Shown: positions 4,833 through 34,130 of the stretch, in pieces
Numbering within the stretch: the stretch's first letter is position 1
Layout of the letters: every line of letters begins with the position of its first letter
Assembly (NCBI GenBank): GCA_002369235.1
Contig: DFFF01000024.1
Coordinates: forward strand, 6,586-70,585
Length of the DNA stretch: 64,000 nt
DNA from: Verrucomicrobia bacterium UBA3783
GTDB lineage: Bacteria; Verrucomicrobiota; Kiritimatiellia; RFP12; UBA1067
Reading direction: 5' to 3'
Translations under genes and position numbers: made by a program
Notes under the pieces: model-generated
The model's database searches: none
Seen by the model: the letters and a program-made list of their open reading frames with translations, nothing else
Told to the model about the DNA's origin: nothing

Positions 4833-5645
4833 TCACCCTTCGACCTTCATCTGGGTCTCGTCGAGCGCCTGGCGGATCTGGGCGTCGATCTTGTCCAGCG
4901 ACTCGCGGATGCACTTGGCGATGTCGGTTGCCTCGATCTTCGCTTCGGCTTTCTTGCGCTCGGCGTCGCTTTCGGGACGTTCGACTTCAGGATTGTATTC
5001 GCTGGCGGCCGCACGCAACGCCGCCGAAACCTCGCTTAGCGTGACCGCGCCGATCGTATCGGTGCACTTGGCGATCTTGCCGTCGACCTCGGCGATCTTC
5101 GCGGCCGTCGAATCGATCGCGACGTTTATCTGATCGAGCTTCGCCTGCTCCTCGGCCCGCTGCGCCTTGAGCTTGGCCACCTGCTCGCGATGGTCGGCGC
5201 CATCCTCCACGGCCTGTTCGATCTGCTTTTCGAGCGCGGCGATCTGCTCGTCGAGCAAGGCGATACGCCCTTCGCCGGCCGTCTTGGCAGCGTTCAAATC
5301 GACCAGCCCCCGATCCAGCTCCGCCTTCTCGGCGTTGAGGGTCTCGATATCCAAAATCGCATTGCGCTGGGCTTCGGTGATGCGGTTGTTCATCGAGTCG
5401 AGCACCGTCTGCAGAATGGAGATCCGGCGCTGGGAGACGGACATCTTCGCGTTTTCGTTCTCGTTCTTGAGCATTGCGACTAGTTTTTCGAGGTCGGTCA
5501 TCGCGCCGTCGGTGACGGTCAGGGATTTGCCGCCCAGAATGGGCGCCTGCGTCTTCTGCGTCTGTGCATCCGCGAGCGTGAGGCCTACGCCCTGCTCGGC
5601 GATCTGCTGACCTTGTATCTTGCTGGTTACGCTTTCAATTGCCAT
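4833..5645 (-). CDS. Coiled-coil protein at the LcrV/PcrV (tip-protein) position of the translocon operon; function inferred from synteny only
   Basis: 270-aa ORF with an AAAGGAAC RBS. Long heptad-like stretches are present (AEKAELDRGLVDLNAAKTAGEGRIALLDEQIAALEKQIEQAVEDG...) and there is no TM segment. It sits between the LcrG-like gene and the chaperone. Confidence 0.55.
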   Translation of the reverse strand: MAIESVTSKIQGQQIAEQGVGLTLADAQTQKTQAPILGGKSLTVTDGAMTDLEKLVAMLKNENENAKMSVSQRRISILQTVLDSMNNRITEAQRNAILDIETLNAEKAELDRGLVDLNAAKTAGEGRIALLDEQIAALEKQIEQAVEDGADHREQVAKLKAQRAEEQAKLDQINVAIDSTAAKIAEVDGKIAKCTDTIGAVTLSEVSAALRAAASEYNPEVERPESDAERKKAEAKIEATDIAKCIRESLDKIDAQIRQALDETQMKVEG

Positions 5646-5678
5646 GTTGGTGTTCCTTTCTTCCGCCTTGTATACACC

Positions 5679-6059
5679 TCAGATCTGAAAAGGTTTCATC
5701 ATCATGCCAAATTTTCTCTGCCGGTATGCAACTTCGTCGTCCATCCCGGAGGCGGGTTCGAGATTCACCGTGCGTGGCGTTTCGAAGGCGTGCGCGTCTC
5801 CCGCGCGCGCACGCTCCAATTCATCCCAGCGCTCCAGCGGATCGAGTCCGCGACGCTTCAACTCCGCGTCCACGGCCTCCAGCTGCGCCTCGGTGAAGTG
5901 CATACTCATCACCTGTTCGCGCGTAAGACCCTGTTTTTCCAGCATTCTGTCGGTCTCCGCCATGCGCAATTGCGCCTGCGAGACAACACTCTTGCTGTCC
6001 GCAATCGTCTTGCGGATTCGCGCTAGATATGACTGAATATCTTTTTCGTCTCCGTTCAT
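5679..6059 (-). CDS. Small T3SS-associated protein, LcrG/PcrG-like (tentative)
   Basis: 126 aa and first gene of the operon. TIADSK...QGLTREQVMSMHF...RKFGMMMKPFQI resembles recalled LcrG (AIADSD...IGLTPEAVMKIF...KPTMMRGQII). The gene order matches lcrG-lcrV-lcrH-yopB-yopD. Confidence 0.45.
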   Translation of the reverse strand: MNGDEKDIQSYLARIRKTIADSKSVVSQAQLRMAETDRMLEKQGLTREQVMSMHFTEAQLEAVDAELKRRGLDPLERWDELERARAGDAHAFETPRTVNLEPASGMDDEVAYRQRKFGMMMKPFQI

Positions 6060-16868: not shown

Positions 16869-16945
16869 TGGCGGTCCTGGCGGGACTCGAACCCACTACC
16901 CGCTGCTTAGAAGGCAGCTGCTCTGTCCAGATGAGCTACAGGACC
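16869..16945 (-). tRNA. tRNA-Arg (anticodon UCU)
   Basis: The reverse complement GGTCCTGTAGCTCATCTGGACAGAGCAGCTGCCTTCTAAGCAGCGGGTAGTGGGTTCGAGTCCCGCCAGGACCGCCA folds as a cloverleaf. It has a 7-bp acceptor, a GCTC/GAGC D stem, a GCTGC/GCAGC anticodon stem with loop CTTCTAA, a TTCGAGT T-loop and an encoded CCA. Confidence 0.95.
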
Positions 16946-27652: not shown

Positions 27653-28744
27653 TCAGCCAATCGTCCTGAGCGGCATGATCACGTAAATGAACGGAATGCT
27701 GCAGGTTATCACGGCGGCGGTGCTGCCATCGAGCATCTTGATCGTGATTTCATCGTCGTCGATCGCCTTGAGCGGATCGAGCAGATAGGCGGGATCGAAA
27801 CTCACCTCGATCTTCTCGCCGAGATACTTGATCGGCAGTTCGTCGTTCAGTTCCCCGATGTCGCTCGAGGACGAGCGCACGAAGAGCGTGTTGCCTTCAA
27901 ATGTAAGCGACGCCGAGCGGTCGTTTCCGAATACGCTCACGCGCTCGATCGCGCTGATGAACTCCTGGCGGTCGAGCTTTACTTCATTGGGGAGGTTGGT
28001 CGGAATTACGAGGCGGTAGTTGGGGTATTTGTCGTCGATGAGTTTGGAATAGATCGTTATGCCTTCAAGTTCGAAGGCGATGTTCGTGTTGCGCAGCACG
28101 ATCTTCACCTCGCCTTCTCCCTCAAGCGACTTGTTGATCTCGTTGATCGCCTTGGACGGAACGATCACATCGCGGTCGGTTCCCGCCGGAAATTCGAGTT
28201 CCTGCTCCACCATCGCCATGCGCTTGCCGTTGGTGGCGACCATCGTGAGCTTCTGATCCTTGAAACTGAAGAGCACTCCGCGGAGCGGACGGCGGGTCTC
28301 ATCCTGGGAAACGGCGTAGGCGACCTTGCGGATCATTTCGTGGAGAACCGCCTTTTCCACCGTGTATTGATAGTTTTCATCCTCAAGCGCGATGCGCGGA
28401 AAGTTCACCATGGGCTTGCCGGTGAATCTGTAGCGCGACCGGGCGGCGTTCACTACCGCAATGTCGTTTTCATCCACGCTCACGTTTACGATTCCATCCG
28501 TGGCTTTTGCAATCGCGGAAAAGAGCGTCTTGGCGGGAAGCGTGGTCGCGCCCGGCTCCTCTACTTCGCACTTCACCTCGCGCCGCACGGTCATGTCCAG
28601 ATCCGTGGTGGTCAAAACGAGCTTCCCGTCAGCCGCTTCAAGCAGCACGTTCTGCATCATCTGGTTTACCGCCTTCGCGGGAATGACGCTCTGTACATCC
28701 TTAAGTCCGTCGAGAAATGTTCCTTTGGTGATTGAAAGTTTCAT
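27653..28744 (-). CDS. dnaN: DNA polymerase III beta sliding clamp
   Basis: 363 aa. MKLSITKGTFLDGLKDVQSVIPAKAVNQMMQNVLLEAADGKLVLTTTDLDM and a three-domain repeat pattern are present, and it lies directly downstream of dnaA. Confidence 0.92.
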   Translation of the reverse strand: MKLSITKGTFLDGLKDVQSVIPAKAVNQMMQNVLLEAADGKLVLTTTDLDMTVRREVKCEVEEPGATTLPAKTLFSAIAKATDGIVNVSVDENDIAVVNAARSRYRFTGKPMVNFPRIALEDENYQYTVEKAVLHEMIRKVAYAVSQDETRRPLRGVLFSFKDQKLTMVATNGKRMAMVEQELEFPAGTDRDVIVPSKAINEINKSLEGEGEVKIVLRNTNIAFELEGITIYSKLIDDKYPNYRLVIPTNLPNEVKLDRQEFISAIERVSVFGNDRSASLTFEGNTLFVRSSSSDIGELNDELPIKYLGEKIEVSFDPAYLLDPLKAIDDDEITIKMLDGSTAAVITCSIPFIYVIMPLRTIG

Positions 28745-28865
28745 TGTTTACATTCCTTCTATTTTTTATTTGTTTTTCTCTTTAAATCATATTAGTATTA
28801 TCAGGACGGTTGAGAAGTTGACAATTCGCTTTTCTCCAATGTTTTCAGGCATGAAGACAGCATTT

Positions 28866-28874
28866 TTATCAACT
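28866..28874. promoter_or_regulatory. DnaA-box-like 9-mer TTATCAACT in the AT-rich dnaA-dnaN spacer
   Basis: Seen in the 197-bp AT-rich spacer 28745-28941. It is a single site, two mismatches from TTATCCACA. Confidence 0.3.
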
Positions 28875-28941
28875 TTAGAATGTCTGCAAATTGTAGAGTG
28901 CTGTTCATATTTTTTACAATTGGCCGGATGTCTACAAGTTG

Positions 28942-30351: not shown

Positions 30352-30770
30352 TGCTGCCGCCTTTTCTGCTTGCCGTTTGCCGCCATTGCCCTTTTTTTCT
30401 GCTTGCCGTTTGCCGCCGTTGCGTTTGCTCTTTGCTGTTGTTCTGTTTTGCGCTTGCCGCCGTTGTGCTTGCTGTTGTTCTGTTGTTGCGCTTGCCTGCC
30501 GTTGCGCTTTTTGTTGCTACCGTTGTGCTCTTTGCTGTTGTTCTGTTTTGCTTGTCTGCCGTTGAGTTGCGTTCAGTTGCTCTCTTGTCTGTTTTAGTCT
30601 TGCGTTGCCATTACTGTAGTTCTGCGGCAGCCTTTACTGCTCGCGTTATCGCCTTTCATCCTCTGCTTGCGCTGTTTGTTGCTGCATTGTTGCTGGCATT
30701 GCCGTTCTTGTAGTTTATTGGTTTTCGTTGCTTTTGCTGCCGCACTGCTTTGAGTTGCTCTTTTCAACTG
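30352..30770. repeat. A-depleted (plus strand) imperfect-repeat tract forming the putative T/U-free leader of dnaA
   Basis: My count gives only 2 A residues on the plus strand in 30352-30564 (positions 30385 and 30519) and about 20 in 30352-30770. Internal direct repeats include CTGCTTGCCGTTTGCCGCC (x2) and CTCTTTGCTGTTGTTCTGTTTTGC (x2). Confidence 0.8.
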
Positions 30771-30795
30771 TAGACAGTGCGCCCTTTCAGCGTGT

Positions 30796-30804
30796 ATAAT
30801 ATCA
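30796..30804 (-). promoter_or_regulatory. Candidate dnaA promoter -10 (TGATATTAT, minus strand); a plus-strand TAGACA-18 bp-TATAAT (30771-30800) overlaps it divergently
   Basis: The minus strand reads ACAAAATATGATATTATACAC, one mismatch from the window's recurrent A-run + TGnTATAAT motif. It would give a leader of about 440 nt. The plus strand carries TAGACA at 30771-30776 and TATAAT at 30795-30800. Confidence 0.35.
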
Positions 30805-30851
30805 TATTTTGTCGCAATAAATCAATGAAATCTTATGATAAGTTATAAACG

Positions 30852-30876
30852 GTTATCAACAAATTTTGTTGATAAC
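30852..30876. promoter_or_regulatory. Perfect palindrome of two DnaA-box-like 9-mers (GTTATCAACAAA-T-TTTGTTGATAAC)
   Basis: Two 12-nt perfect inverted arms flank a single central T. They contain TTATCAACA (30853-30861) and TGTTGATAA (30867-30875), each one mismatch from TTATCCACA. The palindrome lies in the only AT-rich patch of the dnaA upstream region. Confidence 0.6.
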
Positions 30877-30900
30877 TCTGGTTGACAATGCTGTGGCATC

Positions 30901-31314
30901 TTCTAGCCTAGCAGGGCTAGCTGGGCTAGACGGGCTAGCTTTCTAGCTTTGCTAGCTTTTCTAGCCCTGCTAGCCCCTCTAGCTCTGCTAGCTTTTCTAG
31001 CCCCGCTAGACTAGCTAGCCCTTCTAGCTCCTCTAGCCCTTCTAGCCCCTCTAGCTGCGCTAGCCCCGCTAGCTTTTCTAGCTCTTCTAGCTTTTCTAGC
31101 TCTTCTGGCCCTGCTAGCTCTGCTAGTTCCTCTAGCCCTTCTGGCCCCGCTAGCTTTTCTAGCTCTTCTAGCTTTTCTAGCTCTTCTGGCCCTGCTAGCT
31201 CTTCTAGCCCTGCTAGCTTTTCTAGATCTCCTAGCCCCGCTAGCCCTGCTAGCTCTGCTAGTTTCTCTAGCTCTTCTAGCTCTTCTAGCCCCGCTAGACT
31301 AGCTAGCCCCGCTA
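30901..31314. repeat. Phase-locked 9-bp tandem array, unit CTAGC + 4 pyrimidine-rich nt (about 47 units)
   Basis: CTAG (CTGG in 3 units) starts at 30943 + 9k for k = 0..41, up to 31312. Four more units at 30908-30935 are in a register shifted by 1 bp. A 58-bp block at 31064-31121 is repeated exactly at 31145-31202 (offset 81 bp). Confidence 0.95.
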
Positions 31315-31446
31315 GAAGTCTAGCCTTCTAGACTACGAAGTCCAGCCTTCTAGACTACGAAGTCCAGCATCCTGGACTACGAAGTCTAGCCCCTTAGACT
31401 GCGAAGTCCAGACTTCTAGACTACGAAGTCCAGCCTTCTAGGCTAC
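31315..31446. repeat. Six tandem 22-bp repeats, each with a 16-bp dyad GTCYAG-N4-CTRGAC (iteron/centromere-like)
   Basis: Units start at 31315, 31337, 31359, 31381, 31403 and 31425, with consensus GAAGTCCAGCCTTCTAGACTAC. The dyad is perfect in unit 1 (GTCTAGCCTTCTAGAC) and unit 3 (GTCCAGCATCCTGGAC), and the spacer is TACGAA. Confidence 0.95.
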
Positions 31447-31461
31447 TAGGCGGACGGGCTT

Positions 31462-33939
31462 TTAGATATGACCGCGCTTGATGATGATTGCCAATACCGC
31501 GACGTCGGCCGGGTTGACGCCGGGGATCCGGGCGGCTTGGGCGAGAGTTTCGGGGCGGTGCTTTTTAAGCTTTTCCCGCGATTCATAACGCACCATATTG
31601 AGTTTGTCGTAATCAAGCCACCGCGGAATCGCGATCTGCTCGTCCTTCTTCGCCCGCTCCGACGCCTTTTTCTCCTGCTCGATATAAGGTAGATAATGAC
31701 GCATAATAGAAACCTGTTTTGCCGCCTCGTTGTGGATATATCCGCCATCACCGGATTCGACCGCTTCGCCCGATTCCATCATCCGCGCAATCTCCGAGAT
31801 TATGGCGCGGGTTTCGGTGCGGAATTGCTCCGATTTGATTTTCGCGGCGTCCGCGGCGTCCGCCAAGCGGTATCTGGCGTTGTCCTGTCGCAGGATAAGC
31901 CGGCGCTCGGCGCGGCTGGTGAACATCCGGTAGGGTTCATCGGTGCCCTTGGTGACCAGGTCGTCGATCATTACCCCAATGTAGGCGTCTTGTCGGCTCA
32001 ACACGAGCGGCGGCAGGTTGTCGGCTTTTCTGGCGGCATTGATGCCGGCCATGATTCCTTGTGCCGCCGCTTCCTCGTATCCGGTCGTGCCGTTGATTTG
32101 TCCGGCAAAGAAGAGATTGTCGATCCGTTTTGCCTCCAATGAATGCTTGAGTTCGCGGGAATCGATAGCGTCATACTCGATGGCATACGCATATGCCAGG
32201 AACTCCGCGTGTTCGAGCCCCGGAACCGAGCGCACCATTTTTTCCTGCACTTCGCGTGGCAGCGAGCAGCTTAGACCGTTAGGGTAGATGATTTTGCCGT
32301 CGGAGTCCTCCGGCTCCAGCATGACATGATGGCCTTGGGCATCGGGGAAGCGGACGATTTTATCTTCGATGCTGGGGCAATATCTGACCCCAGTCCCTAC
32401 AATTGCGCCGCCATAGAGCGAGGATTTTGCCAGATTTTGGCGGATTATGGCGTGCGTTTCGGGGGTCGTGTGGGTGAGATAACAGGGCAATTCTTTAAAA
32501 ATGTTCCACGTGGAACAGTCGGGTGGGGGCGGCAGTCCGGGACTTTTTACCCCAACCTCTGGACTTTGCGCCGCACTTTCCAGCTCTTGCGCCGCACTTT
32601 CCAGCTTTTGCGCCGCGCCTTCTGGCTTTTGCACCGTGCCTTCCGCCGCATTTACCGCGCTTTCCGCCGCATTTACCGCGCTTTCCGGCTTTTGCACCGT
32701 GCCTTCCGGCGCATTTACCGCACTCTCCGGCGCATTTACCGCGCCTTCCGGCCGATTGCCACCCTCTGTGGCAGTCGACCCGAAAGTCTCTCTGCGCACT
32801 CTGCGACTCTGCGACTCTGCGTTTAAAAAGCCAATGGCAGGCGCAAGCGCGTCTGGCGGTTCGCAATCCGGCCATTGATGTTCCACGTGGAACAATGTGG
32901 TTTGTGGATTGCAAGACCGGGGGTTGTTAGCCGGGAGATTGCGGTGTTCCACGTGGAACAATGGGCGCGGTTGCTCGCCGGACTGTGGGTTGGTAGCCGG
33001 GAGACTACGGTGTTCCACGTGGAACAATGGGCGCGGTTGCTCGCCCGGCTGGGGCTCGCACTTTGCGAAATCGCAGGATGCGGCGGTGAGCCGGGGCGGA
33101 GTGCCGGTCTTGAGTCGGATCAGTTCAAACCCAAGATCCGACAATGATTTGCTGAGTTCATTGACGGCCGGGCGTCCATCGCCGCCCGATTCGATACACT
33201 CTTGCCCTATCCATACCCTGCCGCGCAGGCTGGTTCCGGCGGTGATGACAATCGATTTTGCATGGATTTCGCCGTTTTTCGCGGTCAGAATCCCGGCAGC
33301 GACCGGATTTTCCGGTGTCATTTCCGGCTCTGCGGCGCAGGCGGCGAGGCTTGCGGCGTTGGTTTCGGGACTGGAAACTTGGGTTTCATTTGATGTTGCG
33401 GCGCAGGATCCGCCGGTGCTTGCGCGGGTTTCCGGGGCTGGAACTTGCGGCGGATTGGCGTCAAAACCGGTGATGCCGCCGCTCTCGGTGGCGGTCGACT
33501 CGTCACCCGGAAGCGGGAATTCCCGATCCTTCTGTCCGTTTGGGCTGCCGGAGGTCAGGATCGCGATGGCGGCGTCTTCAAGGACGGTGAGGTTCGGTTC
33601 GGCGTCGATTACCGCCTGCATGCGCTTGGCGTAGGCAAGCTTGTCGCACTGGGTGCGGGTGGCGTGGACGGCACAGCCTTTGGAGCGGTTCAGAATCTTG
33701 CTCTGGAGCGCGGTCGCGTCGGCGTTTTTCCCCATTTCGCCGCCCAAGGCATCGAGCTCGTGGACGAGGTGGCTTTTGGCGAGTCCGCCGATCGACGGGT
33801 TGCACGGCATCCTGCCGATTGCGTCGCGTCTGGCGGTGACGAGCAGGGTCTTTTTGCCCATTCTGGCCGACGCCAGGGACGCTTCGCACCCCGCGTGGCC
33901 GCCGCCAACCACAATAACATCAAAATCTGTCGCTTTCAT
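31462..33939 (-). CDS. mnmG: tRNA uridine-5-carboxymethylaminomethyl modification enzyme MnmG (GidA), expanded to 825 aa by two in-frame low-complexity insertions
   Basis: It has the FAD motif [22 protein letters not shown], then [39 protein letters not shown]..., and the C-terminal [26 protein letters not shown]. Insertions lie at about aa 128-216 and about aa 311-483 relative to recalled E. coli MnmG (~630 aa). Confidence 0.9.
32502..32517. other. parS-type centromere site, perfect 16-bp palindrome TGTTCCACGTGGAACA
   Basis: It is an exact palindrome whose half-site TGTTCCAC matches the canonical ParB/Spo0J site TGTTNCACGTGAAACA. Within mnmG it is read as ...CSTWN... Confidence 0.75.
32549..32758. 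repeat. About ten tandem 21-bp coding repeats (heptapeptide PE[GS]A[VA][NQ][AK] units) inside mnmG
   Basis: Nine full units run from 32570 to 32758 at exact 21-bp steps, plus a degenerate unit at 32549-32569. On the minus strand they translate as [63 protein letters not shown]. Confidence 0.9.
32879..32894. other. parS-type site TGTTCCACGTGGAACA (copy 2)
   Basis: Exact 16-bp palindrome, encoded in mnmG as LFHVEH. Confidence 0.75.
32945..32960. other. parS-type site TGTTCCACGTGGAACA (copy 3)
   Basis: Exact 16-bp palindrome, encoded as LFHVEH. Confidence 0.75.
33011..33026. other. parS-type site TGTTCCACGTGGAACA (copy 4)
   Basis: Exact 16-bp palindrome, encoded as LFHVEH. This copy coincides with the conserved MnmG P-x-F-S-F loop position. 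Confidence 0.75.
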
Positions 33940-34130
33940 TCGTTTATCTACAATTTTTTCTCTGTGTGTTATGCGATATTACAAAATGTGAAATATTCAA
34001 AAATCCCAATAAATACGCATATTTCACACACATTTTGCAGTTGTCAAGATGAAAAATATTAACGGATGTAAACATTTGTCAACGAGTTGTCAACGGGGTT
34101 GAAAAGCGCTTTTCGGGCGGCAAAAAATGC
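33940..34130. other. AT-rich 190-bp spacer upstream of mnmG with DnaA-box-like sites and a long inverted repeat (candidate unwinding/oriC module)
   Basis: TTATCTACA lies at 33944-33952. TTGTCAACG occurs twice, 11 bp apart (34076-34084 and 34087-34095). The inverted repeat TGTGAAATAT (33987-33996) / ATATTTCACA (34019-34028) has extended A-rich flanks. Confidence 0.4.

Follow-up and report, generated by a model that had tools for sequence, protein, structure and literature searches.

The mnmG-dnaA spacer and its repeats

The DNA analysed here is a stretch of 64 kb (the window, to which all positions refer), in which dnaA and mnmG are separated by a spacer containing a long array of 9-bp units (Table 1), as the preliminary description of this DNA had reported. 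The array sits between the mnmG stop codon with six 22-bp dyad repeats on one side, and a DnaA-box palindrome with the dnaA promoter on the other; the box-like sites and the dyad repeats next to it had likewise been recognized before. DnaA boxes (TTATCAACA) are limited to the two of the palindrome, which is about 30 bp from the array, and to a few other sites in the window. The parS cluster mentioned in the preliminary description is real and comprises four perfect sites, which are located inside the mnmG coding sequence and not in the spacer, 1.2-1.7 kb from the array. Both TRF and repeat finding gave six copies of the 22-bp repeat, five of them with at most three mismatches to the consensus. 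The distance from the dnaA promoter to the ATG, which in the window spans an expanded leader, is about 70 nt in the sister species (L003) and about 30 nt in L005.

All TRF hits in the window with a score of at least 80 fall within 30432-33045, which marks a local repeat hotspot; five different tandem arrays, the 9-bp array included, are expanded in this origin-proximal stretch of 2.6 kb. AT-rich patches are found at 28700-28900, 30800-30900 and 33900-34100. The many genes for N_methyl prepilin-like proteins, together with the rumen origin of the DNA, may point to a PVC-group bacterium such as a member of the Victivallales.

Table 1. Features of the mnmG-dnaA spacer and its flanking genes, in window positions
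Feature	Position	Strand	Remarks
dnaA	28942..30351	-	
Expanded dnaA leader	30352..30760	-	Sense strand almost T-free; 37-39-bp tandem repeats; strain-variable
Divergent promoter-like site	30771..30800	+	TAGACA-18-TATAAT, 11/12 matches; faces the array; consensus match only
dnaA promoter-like site	30796..30825	-	TTGATT-18-TATTAT with TG, extended -10; -10 region kept in relatives
Palindromic DnaA-box pair	30852..30876		TTATCAACA-N6-TGTTGATAA; boxes at 30853/30875; kept in all relatives
Inverted-orientation edge	30903..30942		Three inverted units; four phased CTAG cores at 30908-30935 and an extra CTAG at 30903
Main 9-bp array	30943..31315		42 phase-locked slots (39 CTAG, 3 CTGG); unit on the dnaA-sense (minus) strand GCTAG-M-R-R-R
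Off-register CTAGACTAGCTAG insert (4+5 bp)	31006..31018		Second copy at 31294-31306, the conserved mnmG-side edge
Six 22-bp dyad repeats	31315..31446		Sense GTAGTCTAGAAGGCTGGACTTC; each with CTAG-AAGG-CTRG
mnmG (825 aa)	31462..33939	-	Two low-complexity in-frame insertions with tandem repeats; four parS sites

The 42 consecutive slots of the main array follow each other at exactly 9-bp spacing from 30943 to 31312, in agreement with the earlier count; CTGG replaces CTAG at 31105, 31141 and 31186. The array totals about 46 nine-base units in the window, and TRF described it as head-to-tail units of a single length (period 9, 39.6 copies). The positional entropy of the unit is lowest within CTAG (0-0.2 bits), intermediate for position 9 (0.7 bits) and highest for positions 5-8 (1.1-1.5 bits). 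Phased CTAG-N5-CTAG-N5-CTAG triples occur 33 times in the window, every one inside 30908-31315, and are absent from 100 dinucleotide-preserving shuffles of it. The word CTAG was counted 53 times in about 650 bp (30850-31500) against 27 times in the remaining 63 kb, the number expected for the whole window from mononucleotide composition being about 233. Outside the array it is a disfavoured word of this genome (Markov observed/expected ratio 0.55), and at the array it is concentrated approximately 200-fold. Strand asymmetry is extreme: the plus strand has 37% C and 17% G (GC content 53-56%) and, in agreement with the near absence of A outside CTAG noted before, only three such A's in 30943-31315 (31010, 31226 and 31298).

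Two details of the array required correction. A block that recurs at +81 does exist; its exact length is 59 bp (31063-31121), not 58 bp. The four off-register units at 30908-30940 had been described as shifted by 1 bp; they are out of register, but they are also inverted, their spacers CAGGG/CTGGG/ACGGG being the reverse complement of CCCTG-type spacers. The inverted edge units join the main array via a single 8-bp junction, and this edge is kept in all four alleles described below. Read on the sense strand as GCTAGCTAGTCTAG, the CTAGACTAGCTAG insert corresponds to TAGTCTAG in the 22-bp repeat, a match evident from the sequence itself, and the junction of the array with the 22-bp repeats also has TAGTCTAG in common with the 22-bp unit. 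The degenerate-core unit CCAGAAGAG is present twice in the window.

Several other identities were considered and rejected. The dnaA-sense frame CTA-GAA-GAG is open for 130 codons (LEELEKLAELAG...), and TAG closes only one frame per strand. The array is nonetheless non-coding and not a protein-coding tripeptide repeat, because T is confined to CTAG, which makes the start codons ATG, GTG and TTG impossible, and because 8-bp units shift the phase, and hence the frame, in the conspecific alleles L001 and L611. The statement that it is neither a gene nor a CRISPR array thus holds: the 9-mers are contiguous and lack spacers, whereas CRISPR arrays have repeats of about 24-48 bp with unique spacers of similar length. 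A known structured RNA was dismissed, the only Rfam match above the gathering score in the window being a tRNA (16872-16945), and so was a dispersed REP/BIME-like element, as both the 22-bp unit (at most three mismatches) and the phased CTAG triples occupy a single locus in the 64 kb. With its GC content and with the AT-rich patches lying elsewhere, the array does not qualify as a DNA-unwinding element; nor is it a DnaA-box cluster or a DnaA-trio, the units being GCTAGMRRR with TAG every 9 nt, not every 3. A conserved origin element was rejected, since the boxes and the promoter are kept with dnaA across relatives and the array is not. For a par locus of the RHH type the contiguous 9-bp period would fit, but an adjacent ParA-ATPase/RHH operon was not found: a search of the six frames of the window detected no deviant Walker A (ParA) or ParB motif, and no ParA or RHH families were present in Pfam scans of 17 window ORFs and in the precomputed Pfam assignments of genes called within 6 kb of dnaA, two sets that cover part of the small ORFs. 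The single nearby HTH gene is conserved in relatives that have no array.

Variation among strains and occurrence in relatives

In four independent conspecific assemblies the array has 46, 45, 24 and 50 units, the number and order of units being uncertain as they rest on short-read metagenome assemblies. A sizeable array is thus kept in all four sampled strains, with 45-50 units in three of them. The flanks are 97.6-99.2% identical and the edge units are conserved across the four alleles, while the interior order is scrambled, the longest common run being 2-5 units. Seven unit types are common to all four strains and 18 of the 37 types occur in at least two. Broken cores account for 11 of 151 units, and some degenerate-core units are common to two strains (ATAGAAGCG in L002 and L611, CTAACAGAG in L001 and L611). 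Established, that is amplified, unit types vary at positions 5-9 only and never in CTAG, their minimal tree comprising seven steps and no core change. Singleton one-step variants are divided equally between core and spacer (four each), as neutrality predicts. The difference in core changes between established (0/7) and singleton (4/8) variants has a one-sided hypergeometric p of about 0.05 by our own calculation, and hints that units with intact cores propagate better.

The sister species L003 (DnaA identity 88%, flanks about 84% identical at the nucleotide level) has the same gene order and a spacer of 432 bp without the array; 22-bp repeats are present at the corresponding place, but their sequence is different. 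The array is also missing in L005-L008 (DnaA identity 57%), L248 (53%) and L249 (50%). At 57% identity the mnmG-dnaA spacer is reduced to 114 bp, at 53% dnaA has a different upstream neighbour, and at 50% dnaA is preceded by a gap of 92 bp. All of these array-less relatives retain the palindrome of DnaA boxes and the dnaA promoter, and CTAG is rare in them too.

Short 9-bp tandem arrays of CTAG, GATC or CATG proved common in public genomes, metagenomes and viral contigs. A genome scan for (CTAG-N5)x4-CTAG yielded at least 119 loci, heavily from rumen and gut Bacteroidales with a few from Victivallales and Kiritimatiellia; among the matches listed, the arrays have 5-17 heterogeneous units, about half of them are inside long ORFs, and none adjoins dnaA or mnmG, so that no homologous origin arrays were seen. 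A metagenome scan with the purine-spacer unit, which was poorly targeted, listed only short arrays (4-13 units), most of which were perfect repeats or copies of one dispersed element, and no further alleles. Control scans of viral contigs with GATC and CATG showed that 9-bp arrays of palindromic tetramers are common and, among the matches listed, mostly coding. The longest of about 250 other CTAG-9 arrays among the matches listed has 25 units, compared with 42-50 here. Proteins encoded next to the foreign arrays include one recurrent family (23S_rRNA_IVP-like), which has no counterpart in the window; some of the rumen and gut arrays bracket a gene for a four-helix bundle. A literature search returned no report of CTAG arrays at origins.

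Origin and possible roles of the array

Being scrambled between strains and missing from the sister species, the array most probably represents a minisatellite in rapid evolution rather than an integral part of the origin. We assign a probability of about 0.58 to its being a lineage-specific, hypervariable minisatellite (VNTR) in the 2.6-kb repeat hotspot. Common unit types, conserved edges, shared runs of 2-5 units and near-identical flanks are together the classic pattern of a variant-repeat minisatellite. The array lies in dispensable DNA, with the mnmG stop on one side and the dnaA promoter, regulated by DnaA boxes, on the other. It does not belong to the conserved parts of oriC; the cis elements that are conserved are the DnaA-box palindrome and the extended -10 promoter adjacent to it. 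The 9-bp unit GCTAG-MRRR (dnaA-sense) was probably seeded from the CTAG-AAGG-CTRG dyad of the adjacent 22-bp repeats. Replication slippage and unequal sister-strand exchange would have amplified this unit, and the same processes may continue to reshuffle the copies. As whole units are copied, the 9-bp phase and the CTAG core would be inherited without selection on individual units, and the array could be selectively neutral.

Several observations count against this picture. Turnover fast enough to scramble the order might have collapsed a neutral array in some strains. The concentration of an otherwise disfavoured CTAG, the 42-50 units, far beyond the maximum of 25 among the other CTAG-9 arrays in the matches listed, and the conservation of the three inverted edge units beside the DnaA boxes also sit uneasily with a minisatellite.

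The main competing explanation, which we consider rather unlikely, is a cis-acting platform on which a dimeric protein (of the RHH type, or TrpR/Arc-like with a CTAG/TAGA core) polymerises cooperatively along the units. In this species only, the resulting filament would provide an accessory centromere or a means of sequestration or insulation, or would regulate dnaA and origin firing. At 9-bp spacing each dimer would be rotated by about -51 degrees relative to the one before it, seven units (63 bp) would make one left-handed superhelical turn, and the filament would abut the DnaA-box pair. The comparison that the preliminary description draws with RHH proteins bound to contiguous repeats of less than a helical turn is legitimate as regards geometry: pCXC100 ParB provides a precedent for an RHH dimer on contiguous 9-bp direct repeats (PMC3074162), and TP228 parH for an array of tetramer boxes (PMC3130281). 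The GCTAG core holds nearly all the information of the unit and CTAG is unaltered in the established unit types, all four strains have arrays of 24-50 units with conserved edges, and the DnaA-box palindrome and the four parS sites are close by; selection might then maintain the length while slippage scrambles functionally interchangeable units. These points have to be set against the lack of ParA/ParB signatures in the window and of RHH families among the scanned proteins and the genes called up to 6 kb away; the one HTH gene in the vicinity is kept in relatives without the array. Moreover, broken cores persist and get copied, recent mutations hit the core as frequently as the spacer, and the array is about five times as long as any characterised RHH centromere. 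The preliminary description had proposed that an origin or segregation factor is loaded on the array within an unusual oriC, and had itself named absence or free variation among close relatives as the evidence that would speak against it; the sister species has no array, and the four strains carry 24-50 units in freely scrambled order, so that this proposal is not sustained. A species-specific version, in which a small dimeric RHH- or TrpR/Arc-like protein encoded elsewhere would cover about 45 GCTAG cores in a left-handed filament of about six turns beside the DnaA-box pair, so as to supply a second centromere independent of ParB or to sequester or insulate the dnaA promoter and origin, appears unlikely.

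Roles at the level of transcription or RNA are quite improbable. A consensus scan of the minus strand between 30200 and 31700 detected no terminator-like site, so that mnmG transcripts may include the array as their 3' UTR; alternatively, it could be read as antisense from the plus-strand promoter-like site that faces it. The C-rich, G-poor antisense RNA, foreshadowed by the composition of the plus strand, could be a Rho loading region, and the purine-rich sense RNA, with GCUAG palindromes and 22-nt hairpins, could shield dnaA against read-through or make the mnmG mRNA more stable. As sense RNA the 22-nt repeats do form a strong fold (z = -4.4), which includes G-U pairs possible on that strand only, but Rfam gave no match, the scans for promoters and terminators yield no more than consensus matches, relatives with a gap of 92-114 bp upstream of dnaA manage without such an element, and the scrambled unit order speaks against a defined RNA structure. 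It is very improbable that the array acts as a structural DNA element, in which supercoiling or opening near the dnaA promoter and origin would be altered by phased flexible kinks at CTAG (TA steps), by purine/pyrimidine asymmetry, and by hairpins or slipped structures formed among inverted and direct units. As single-stranded DNA the array folds much more stably than its shuffles (z = -6.2), the inverted edge units could pair with many forward units, and the strand asymmetry is consistent with this idea; against it are a GC content unlike that of an AT-rich unwinding region, a 9-bp period that gives no additive planar curvature, and the lack of conservation in relatives. Triplex formation is unlikely, as the purine tracts are broken every 9 bp.

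An artefact or gross mis-assembly of short-read metagenome data can hardly be credited. N gaps are present here in L001 and L002, L609 and L610 break within the leader repeats, and the exact 59-bp duplicate could be a graph loop; the array, however, was recovered in four assemblies from different samples, studies and assemblers, which have the edge units and the unit vocabulary in common and strain-specific SNPs in the flanks. No more credible is an extended track of the DnaA-trio type, with TAG in every third triplet guiding a DnaA filament on single-stranded DNA from the adjacent boxes. The trio consensus is reportedly 5'-TAG-3' (3'-GAT-5'), and the array begins about 30 bp from the DnaA-box pair. 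Its period is, however, 9 and not 3, with one or two of every three triplets trio-like; it extends over about 400 bp, compared with about 10-25 nt in known trios; the units closest to the boxes are inverted; and all relatives with the same boxes are devoid of it.

If the array is a plain minisatellite, it would be useful as a marker that distinguishes strains of an uncultured rumen bacterium with high resolution, and as a warning that striking regularity beside dnaA need not mean origin machinery. The conserved origin-proximal elements of the clade are only the DnaA-box palindrome, the extended -10 promoter and the parS sites in mnmG codons. An origin-proximal hotspot also raises the question whether slippage is promoted by initiation complexes, ParB-parS complexes or head-on conflicts. 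Were a protein-binding platform to exist, it would be the first chromosomal platform of RHH-style contiguous repeats at a bacterial origin and by far the longest such array known, and the CTAG-9 arrays of Bacteroidales from rumen and gut and of PVC bacteria, where these are non-coding and have diverse spacers, could represent a broader, so far unrecognised class of protein-binding sites.

Comparison with known repeat systems

A known array of the same period is the centromere of plasmid pCXC100, where ParB, an RHH protein of type Ib partition, binds cooperatively to nine uninterrupted 9-bp direct repeats, one dimer to each (PMC3074162). Both arrays consist of uninterrupted direct repeats with a period of exactly 9 bp. 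The nine pCXC100 repeats are, however, non-palindromic (consensus AGNTGGAAA) and belong to a par locus that encodes ParA and ParB, whereas the array described here consists of 42-50 repeats on a chromosome, their core is palindromic, parA and RHH genes were not found nearby, and the array is not conserved in relatives. The parH site of TP228 is an array of tetramer boxes (PMC3130281). Like it, the array combines short 4-bp boxes, fixed short spacers, direct and inverted orientation, and tolerance of degenerate boxes (a "pliable" site in the case of parH); unlike it, the array is not a site of about 100 bp with AT-rich spacers in a plasmid segrosome with ParF and ParG, and has no cognate genes in the scanned window. 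Omega heptads and ParR-parC iterons are further arrays of short recognition boxes.

Cis elements of oriC include DnaA-box clusters and DnaA-trios and, in E. coli, clusters of GATC bound by SeqA. The array resembles them in being origin-proximal, in lying beside DnaA boxes, in a unit as long as a DnaA box, and in the concentration of a palindromic tetramer. It differs in that its units are not TTATCCACA-like, its period is 9 and not 3, and it is unconserved while the adjacent DnaA boxes are conserved. TrpR binds in tandem, with a spacing of 8 bp, to sites that have CTAG at their centre, and Arc recognises TAGA boxes. With the operators of TrpR and Arc/Mnt the array has in common a CTAG/TAGA core suited to a small dimeric repressor and a tandem sub-helical spacing, but not the ACTAGT flanks of TrpR sites, the spacing of 8 bp, or the number of sites (two or three, compared with about 45).

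In comparison with the usual bacterial VNTRs of the MLVA type, the array is long for a 9-bp unit (24-50 copies), its core is a palindrome of 4-6 bp that the genome avoids, its strand asymmetry is extreme, and it abuts the DnaA-box pair of the dnaA promoter among four other tandem arrays. In other respects it is like such VNTRs: short non-coding units are arranged head to tail, broken units persist alongside intact ones, strains differ in copy number and internal order while flanks and edges are conserved, and the locus is absent or different in sister species.

Organization of the mnmG-dnaA spacer

The preliminary description had placed an array of CTAG units, exactly 9 bp apart over 42 consecutive slots (30943-31312), between dnaA and mnmG. 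The spacing was borne out by reading of the sequence and an index of every CTAG, and the setting by Pfam identification of dnaA, dnaN and mnmG. The 42 slots comprise 39 CTAG and three CTGG (31105, 31141 and 31186); Tandem Repeats Finder (TRF) gives period 9 with 39.6 copies and a weak 45-bp higher order. The window has 33 phased CTAG triples, all of them at the array (0 in 100 shuffles), and 53 CTAG are found in 30850-31500 versus 27 in the remaining 63 kb. Outside the array, CTAG is the fifth lowest tetramer (Markov observed/expected 0.55), the value for CCAG/CTGG being 1.28. The near-absence of A outside the cores on the plus strand was also confirmed (only three such A's were counted), and the block said to recur 81 bp later does recur, but is 59 rather than 58 bp long. 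The four units at 30908-30940, thought to be shifted by 1 bp, are present but inverted: the unit is identical to that of the main array, its spacers here (CAGGG/CTGGG/ACGGG) being CCCTG-type spacers in reverse complement, and a single 8-bp junction links these units to the main array.

Start codons are absent, as claimed, but TAG shuts just one of the frames of each strand; the frame CTA-GAA-GAG of the dnaA-sense strand stays open over 130 codons (LEELEKLAELAG...). A start codon is impossible on the sense strand because T is present only inside CTAG, and 8-bp units change the phase in other conspecific alleles; the array is therefore non-coding, and a coding repeat was ruled out on these grounds.

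Features of the mnmG-dnaA spacer, in dnaA-sense order, and of the surrounding region (window coordinates)
Feature	Position	Strand	Remarks
mnmG stop	31462	minus	
Six 22-bp dyad repeats, GTAGTCTAGAAGGCTGGACTTC	31446-31315	minus	directly after mnmG stop
Conserved edge TAGCGGGG-CTAGCTAGT		minus	between 22-bp dyads and main array
Main array, ~40 units GCTAG-M-R-R-R		minus	after conserved edge
8-bp unit followed by three inverted units		minus	dnaA-side end of array
DnaA-box palindrome TTATCAACA-N6-TGTTGATAA	30876-30852	minus	~27 bp beyond inverted units
AT-rich predicted promoter, extended -10	30825-30796	minus	
Sigma-70-like consensus match	30771-30800	plus	TAGACA-18-TATAAT
dnaA leader, ~440 nt, 37-39-bp repeats		minus	between promoter and dnaA ATG; sense strand nearly T-free
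Nearly T-free stretch	30352-30760	minus	~410 of the ~440 nt of the leader
dnaA ATG	30351	minus	
AT-rich patch, dnaA-dnaN spacer	28745-28941		27-40% GC, DnaA-box-like 9-mers
AT-rich patch, upstream of mnmG	33900-34100		27-40% GC, DnaA-box-like 9-mers
2.6-kb repeat stretch	30432-33045		leader repeats, CTAG array, 22-bp dyads, two mnmG repeat blocks
Four perfect parS sites (TGTTCCACGTGGAACA)	32502, 32879, 32945, 33011		all within mnmG ORF
66-bp (22-aa) in-frame tandem repeat	32879-33045		includes three of the four parS sites

No terminator-like sites were found on the sense strand of the spacer. As sense RNA, the 22-bp dyads fold strongly (z = -4.4), with G-U pairs in the hairpins only on this strand. 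The sister species L003 has 22-bp repeats of different sequence (CGTAGTCGAGCGACTTTCACTA) at the equivalent place (5601-5715), only the ACT(A/T)CGTAGT junction being kept; the spacing is iteron-like (two helical turns) and the sequence fast-changing. The plus-strand promoter-like site is a strong match (11/12 positions), divergent from dnaA and directed across the DnaA boxes toward and into the array; the -10 of this site overlaps that of dnaA on the opposite strand. The repeat content of the dnaA leader is strain-dependent: the conspecific assemblies L001 and L002 have other units (e.g., CAGCAGAAAAGGCGGATA x3), and contigs L609 and L610 end inside the leader repeats. The promoter-to-ATG distance is ~70 nt in L003 and ~30 nt in the more distant relative L005, versus ~440 nt in the window.

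Origin region and repeats within mnmG

The cumulative GC skew has its minimum at ~30-32 kb of the window, which fits a nearby origin. Three AT-rich patches carry DnaA-box-like sites: in the dnaA-dnaN spacer, upstream of mnmG and at the dnaA promoter. There is therefore more than one candidate place for oriC, and either of the first two could be the true unwinding region. The array itself (53-56% GC) was ruled out as an unwinding element. All matches of the 64-kb window with a TRF score of at least 80 are inside the 2.6-kb stretch, which is therefore an origin-proximal repeat hotspot.

The parS cluster reported beside the array consists of genuine parS sites, but these are placed in the coding sequence of mnmG (31462-33939, minus strand), where they encode (L/M)FHVEH. 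Four relatives, with 2-3 such sites (L249, L005, L003), all have FHVE unchanged. As the sites are read as an MnmG peptide and three of them fall in an in-frame repeat, the centromere sites are codon-embedded and here amplified. The window MnmG (825 aa) exceeds that of more distant relatives (568-615 aa) by two low-complexity in-frame insertions (~90 and ~170 aa) built of 21-, 63- and 66-bp tandem repeats. The MnmG of the sister species has 826 aa, with different insert sequences.

Variation within the species and among relatives

The window allele (contig L608) was compared with those of three assemblies from other samples (L001, L002, L611), assigned to the same species by their DnaA, which falls in the window's 90% cluster; flank identity to the window, determined for L001 and L002, is 97.6-99.2%. 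The array is present in all three. Copy-number conservation, which was to be checked, was not found: writing each of the four alleles as a string of units gave counts of 46, 45, 24 and 50, the numbers and order being uncertain, as they derive from short-read metagenome assemblies. Both edges are conserved and the interiors are scrambled, the longest identical run of consecutive units for any allele pair being 2-5. Of 37 unit types, seven are common to all four alleles and 18 to at least two. The core is intact in 140/151 nine-mers; the entropy is 0-0.2 bits at CTAG, 1.1-1.5 at positions 5-8 and 0.7 at position 9.

Relatives were found through DnaA homologues and their contigs. The sister species (GCA_045132115.1; DnaA 88%, flanks ~84% nt) has a 432-bp mnmG-dnaA gap, and L005-L008 (DnaA 57%) a 114-bp gap without 22-bp repeats. 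L248 (DnaA 53%) has ~840 bp upstream of dnaA, after a 168-aa ORF for which no Pfam match is recorded, and no tandem array; mnmG was not found in the 3 kb fetched upstream. In L249 (DnaA 50%) a 92-bp gap without other features follows an RNase PH gene, mnmG being further upstream. CTAG is rare in all these relatives, and the DnaA-box palindrome and promoter are kept in all. The array, proposed as an unusual origin component, was found in none of them and is not a conserved oriC component. Absent from relatives and scrambled within the species, it is thus recent, species-specific and turning over rapidly.

Among singleton variants that differ by a single step from a common unit, core and spacer positions are affected equally (4:4), as neutrality predicts. 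Core-degenerate units (ATAGAAGCG, CTAACAGAG, CCAGAAGAG) are common to several strains or duplicated; therefore, broken cores are not purged. The three CTGG/CCAG variants of the window agree with the general CTAG-to-CCAG bias of the genome. Established unit types vary only at positions 5-9 (minimal tree of 7 steps, 0 in CTAG); 0/7 core steps against 4/8 in singletons gives a one-sided p of ~0.05 by hand calculation. This invariant CTAG, and the at least 24 units kept by all four strains, speak weakly against pure drift; both signals would also fit a bias in propagation that slippage between palindromic cores brings with it.

Origin of the array and similar arrays

Every 22-bp repeat includes CTAG-AAGG-CTRG. 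TAGTCTAG is common to the 22-bp unit and the off-register GCTAGCTAGTCTAG units, and adding one base to CTAGAAGG essentially yields the 9-mer CTAGAAGGG; the array thus resembles a product of slippage in the neighboring dyad. One GCTAGCTAGTCTAG unit makes up the conserved edge on the mnmG side, with further copies inside the array. We consider the best explanation (probability roughly 0.58) to be a lineage-specific hypervariable minisatellite in dispensable DNA of the origin-proximal repeat hotspot, for which the adjacent dyad would have supplied the unit, and slippage and unequal exchange would generate and reshuffle the copies.

The main rival, by analogy with ribbon-helix-helix (RHH) proteins on contiguous repeats, is a species-specific protein-binding platform. 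It is favored by the fact that long arrays are retained, by the high information content of the palindromic core and by the existence of a 9-bp precedent. Against it, the sister species lacks the array, broken cores persist, and no partner gene turned up in the motif and Pfam scans of the window. We regard it as unlikely. Deviant Walker A (ParA) and ParB motifs were absent from all frames of the whole window. Pfam scans and precomputed families identified T2SS/pilin-like, metalloenzyme, MnmG, DnaA, DnaN, RlmL, coiled-coil and XRE-HTH/zinc-ribbon genes around dnaA; all occur also in array-less relatives, in identical order in the sister species. A role at the level of RNA or transcription is improbable, a structural DNA element marginally more so, and an assembly artefact or a DnaA-trio-like track would each be very surprising.

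A search of 185,579 species genomes for runs of five phased CTAG gave at least 119 loci, where chance predicts ~0.5 or fewer. The matches listed are mostly from rumen/gut Bacteroidales, with three Victivallales and one Kiritimatiellia; their CTAG-9 arrays have 5-17 units, about half within long ORFs (SSS, LVR, SRx and LEx frames), and none of them adjoins dnaA or mnmG. The matches listed from a metagenome scan with a purine-spacer unit were only short, mostly perfect arrays. In control scans of viral contigs GATC and CATG arrays, like those of CTAG, were common (76-92% coding among the matches listed), so tetramer-based 9-bp arrays are not rare in themselves.

In six Bacteroidales-type loci (L054 7205-7952, L087 806-1657, L043, L045, L121, L163) short arrays adjoin a gene for a ~210-250-aa protein with weak matches to Pfam 23S_rRNA_IVP (four-helix-bundle) in 4/5 scanned, L163 being linked via tblastn only. 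L054 and L087 have arrays on both sides of the gene, its TAG stop lying within the CTAG that opens the downstream array. The arrangement resembles an [array]-[gene]-[array] cassette that was inserted between genes. A candidate class from gut/rumen Bacteroidales (L018 2586-2721, L031, L032, L056, L083, L123) has constant CTAG and all-different spacers in 8-12 units, mostly under short ORFs or no ORF; the L018 array is flanked by perfect 25-bp inverted repeats. Of the short intergenic arrays in rumen Victivallales and Kiritimatiellia MAGs, that of L086 (130-178) has a terminator hairpin on one side and a prepilin-like gene's promoter on the other, that of L044 (33-72) lies just before a start codon, and that of L057 (1096-1144) lies just behind a stop codon.

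The array is probably a bacterial VNTR with unusual features; it stands out by its position and by its length, 42-50 units versus a maximum of 25 for CTAG arrays among the matches listed. No report of CTAG arrays at origins was found in the literature. Its geometry has genuine precedents in the nine uninterrupted 9-bp repeats bound by the RHH protein ParB of pCXC100 (PMC3074162) and in TP228 parH, an array of tetramer boxes (PMC3130281).
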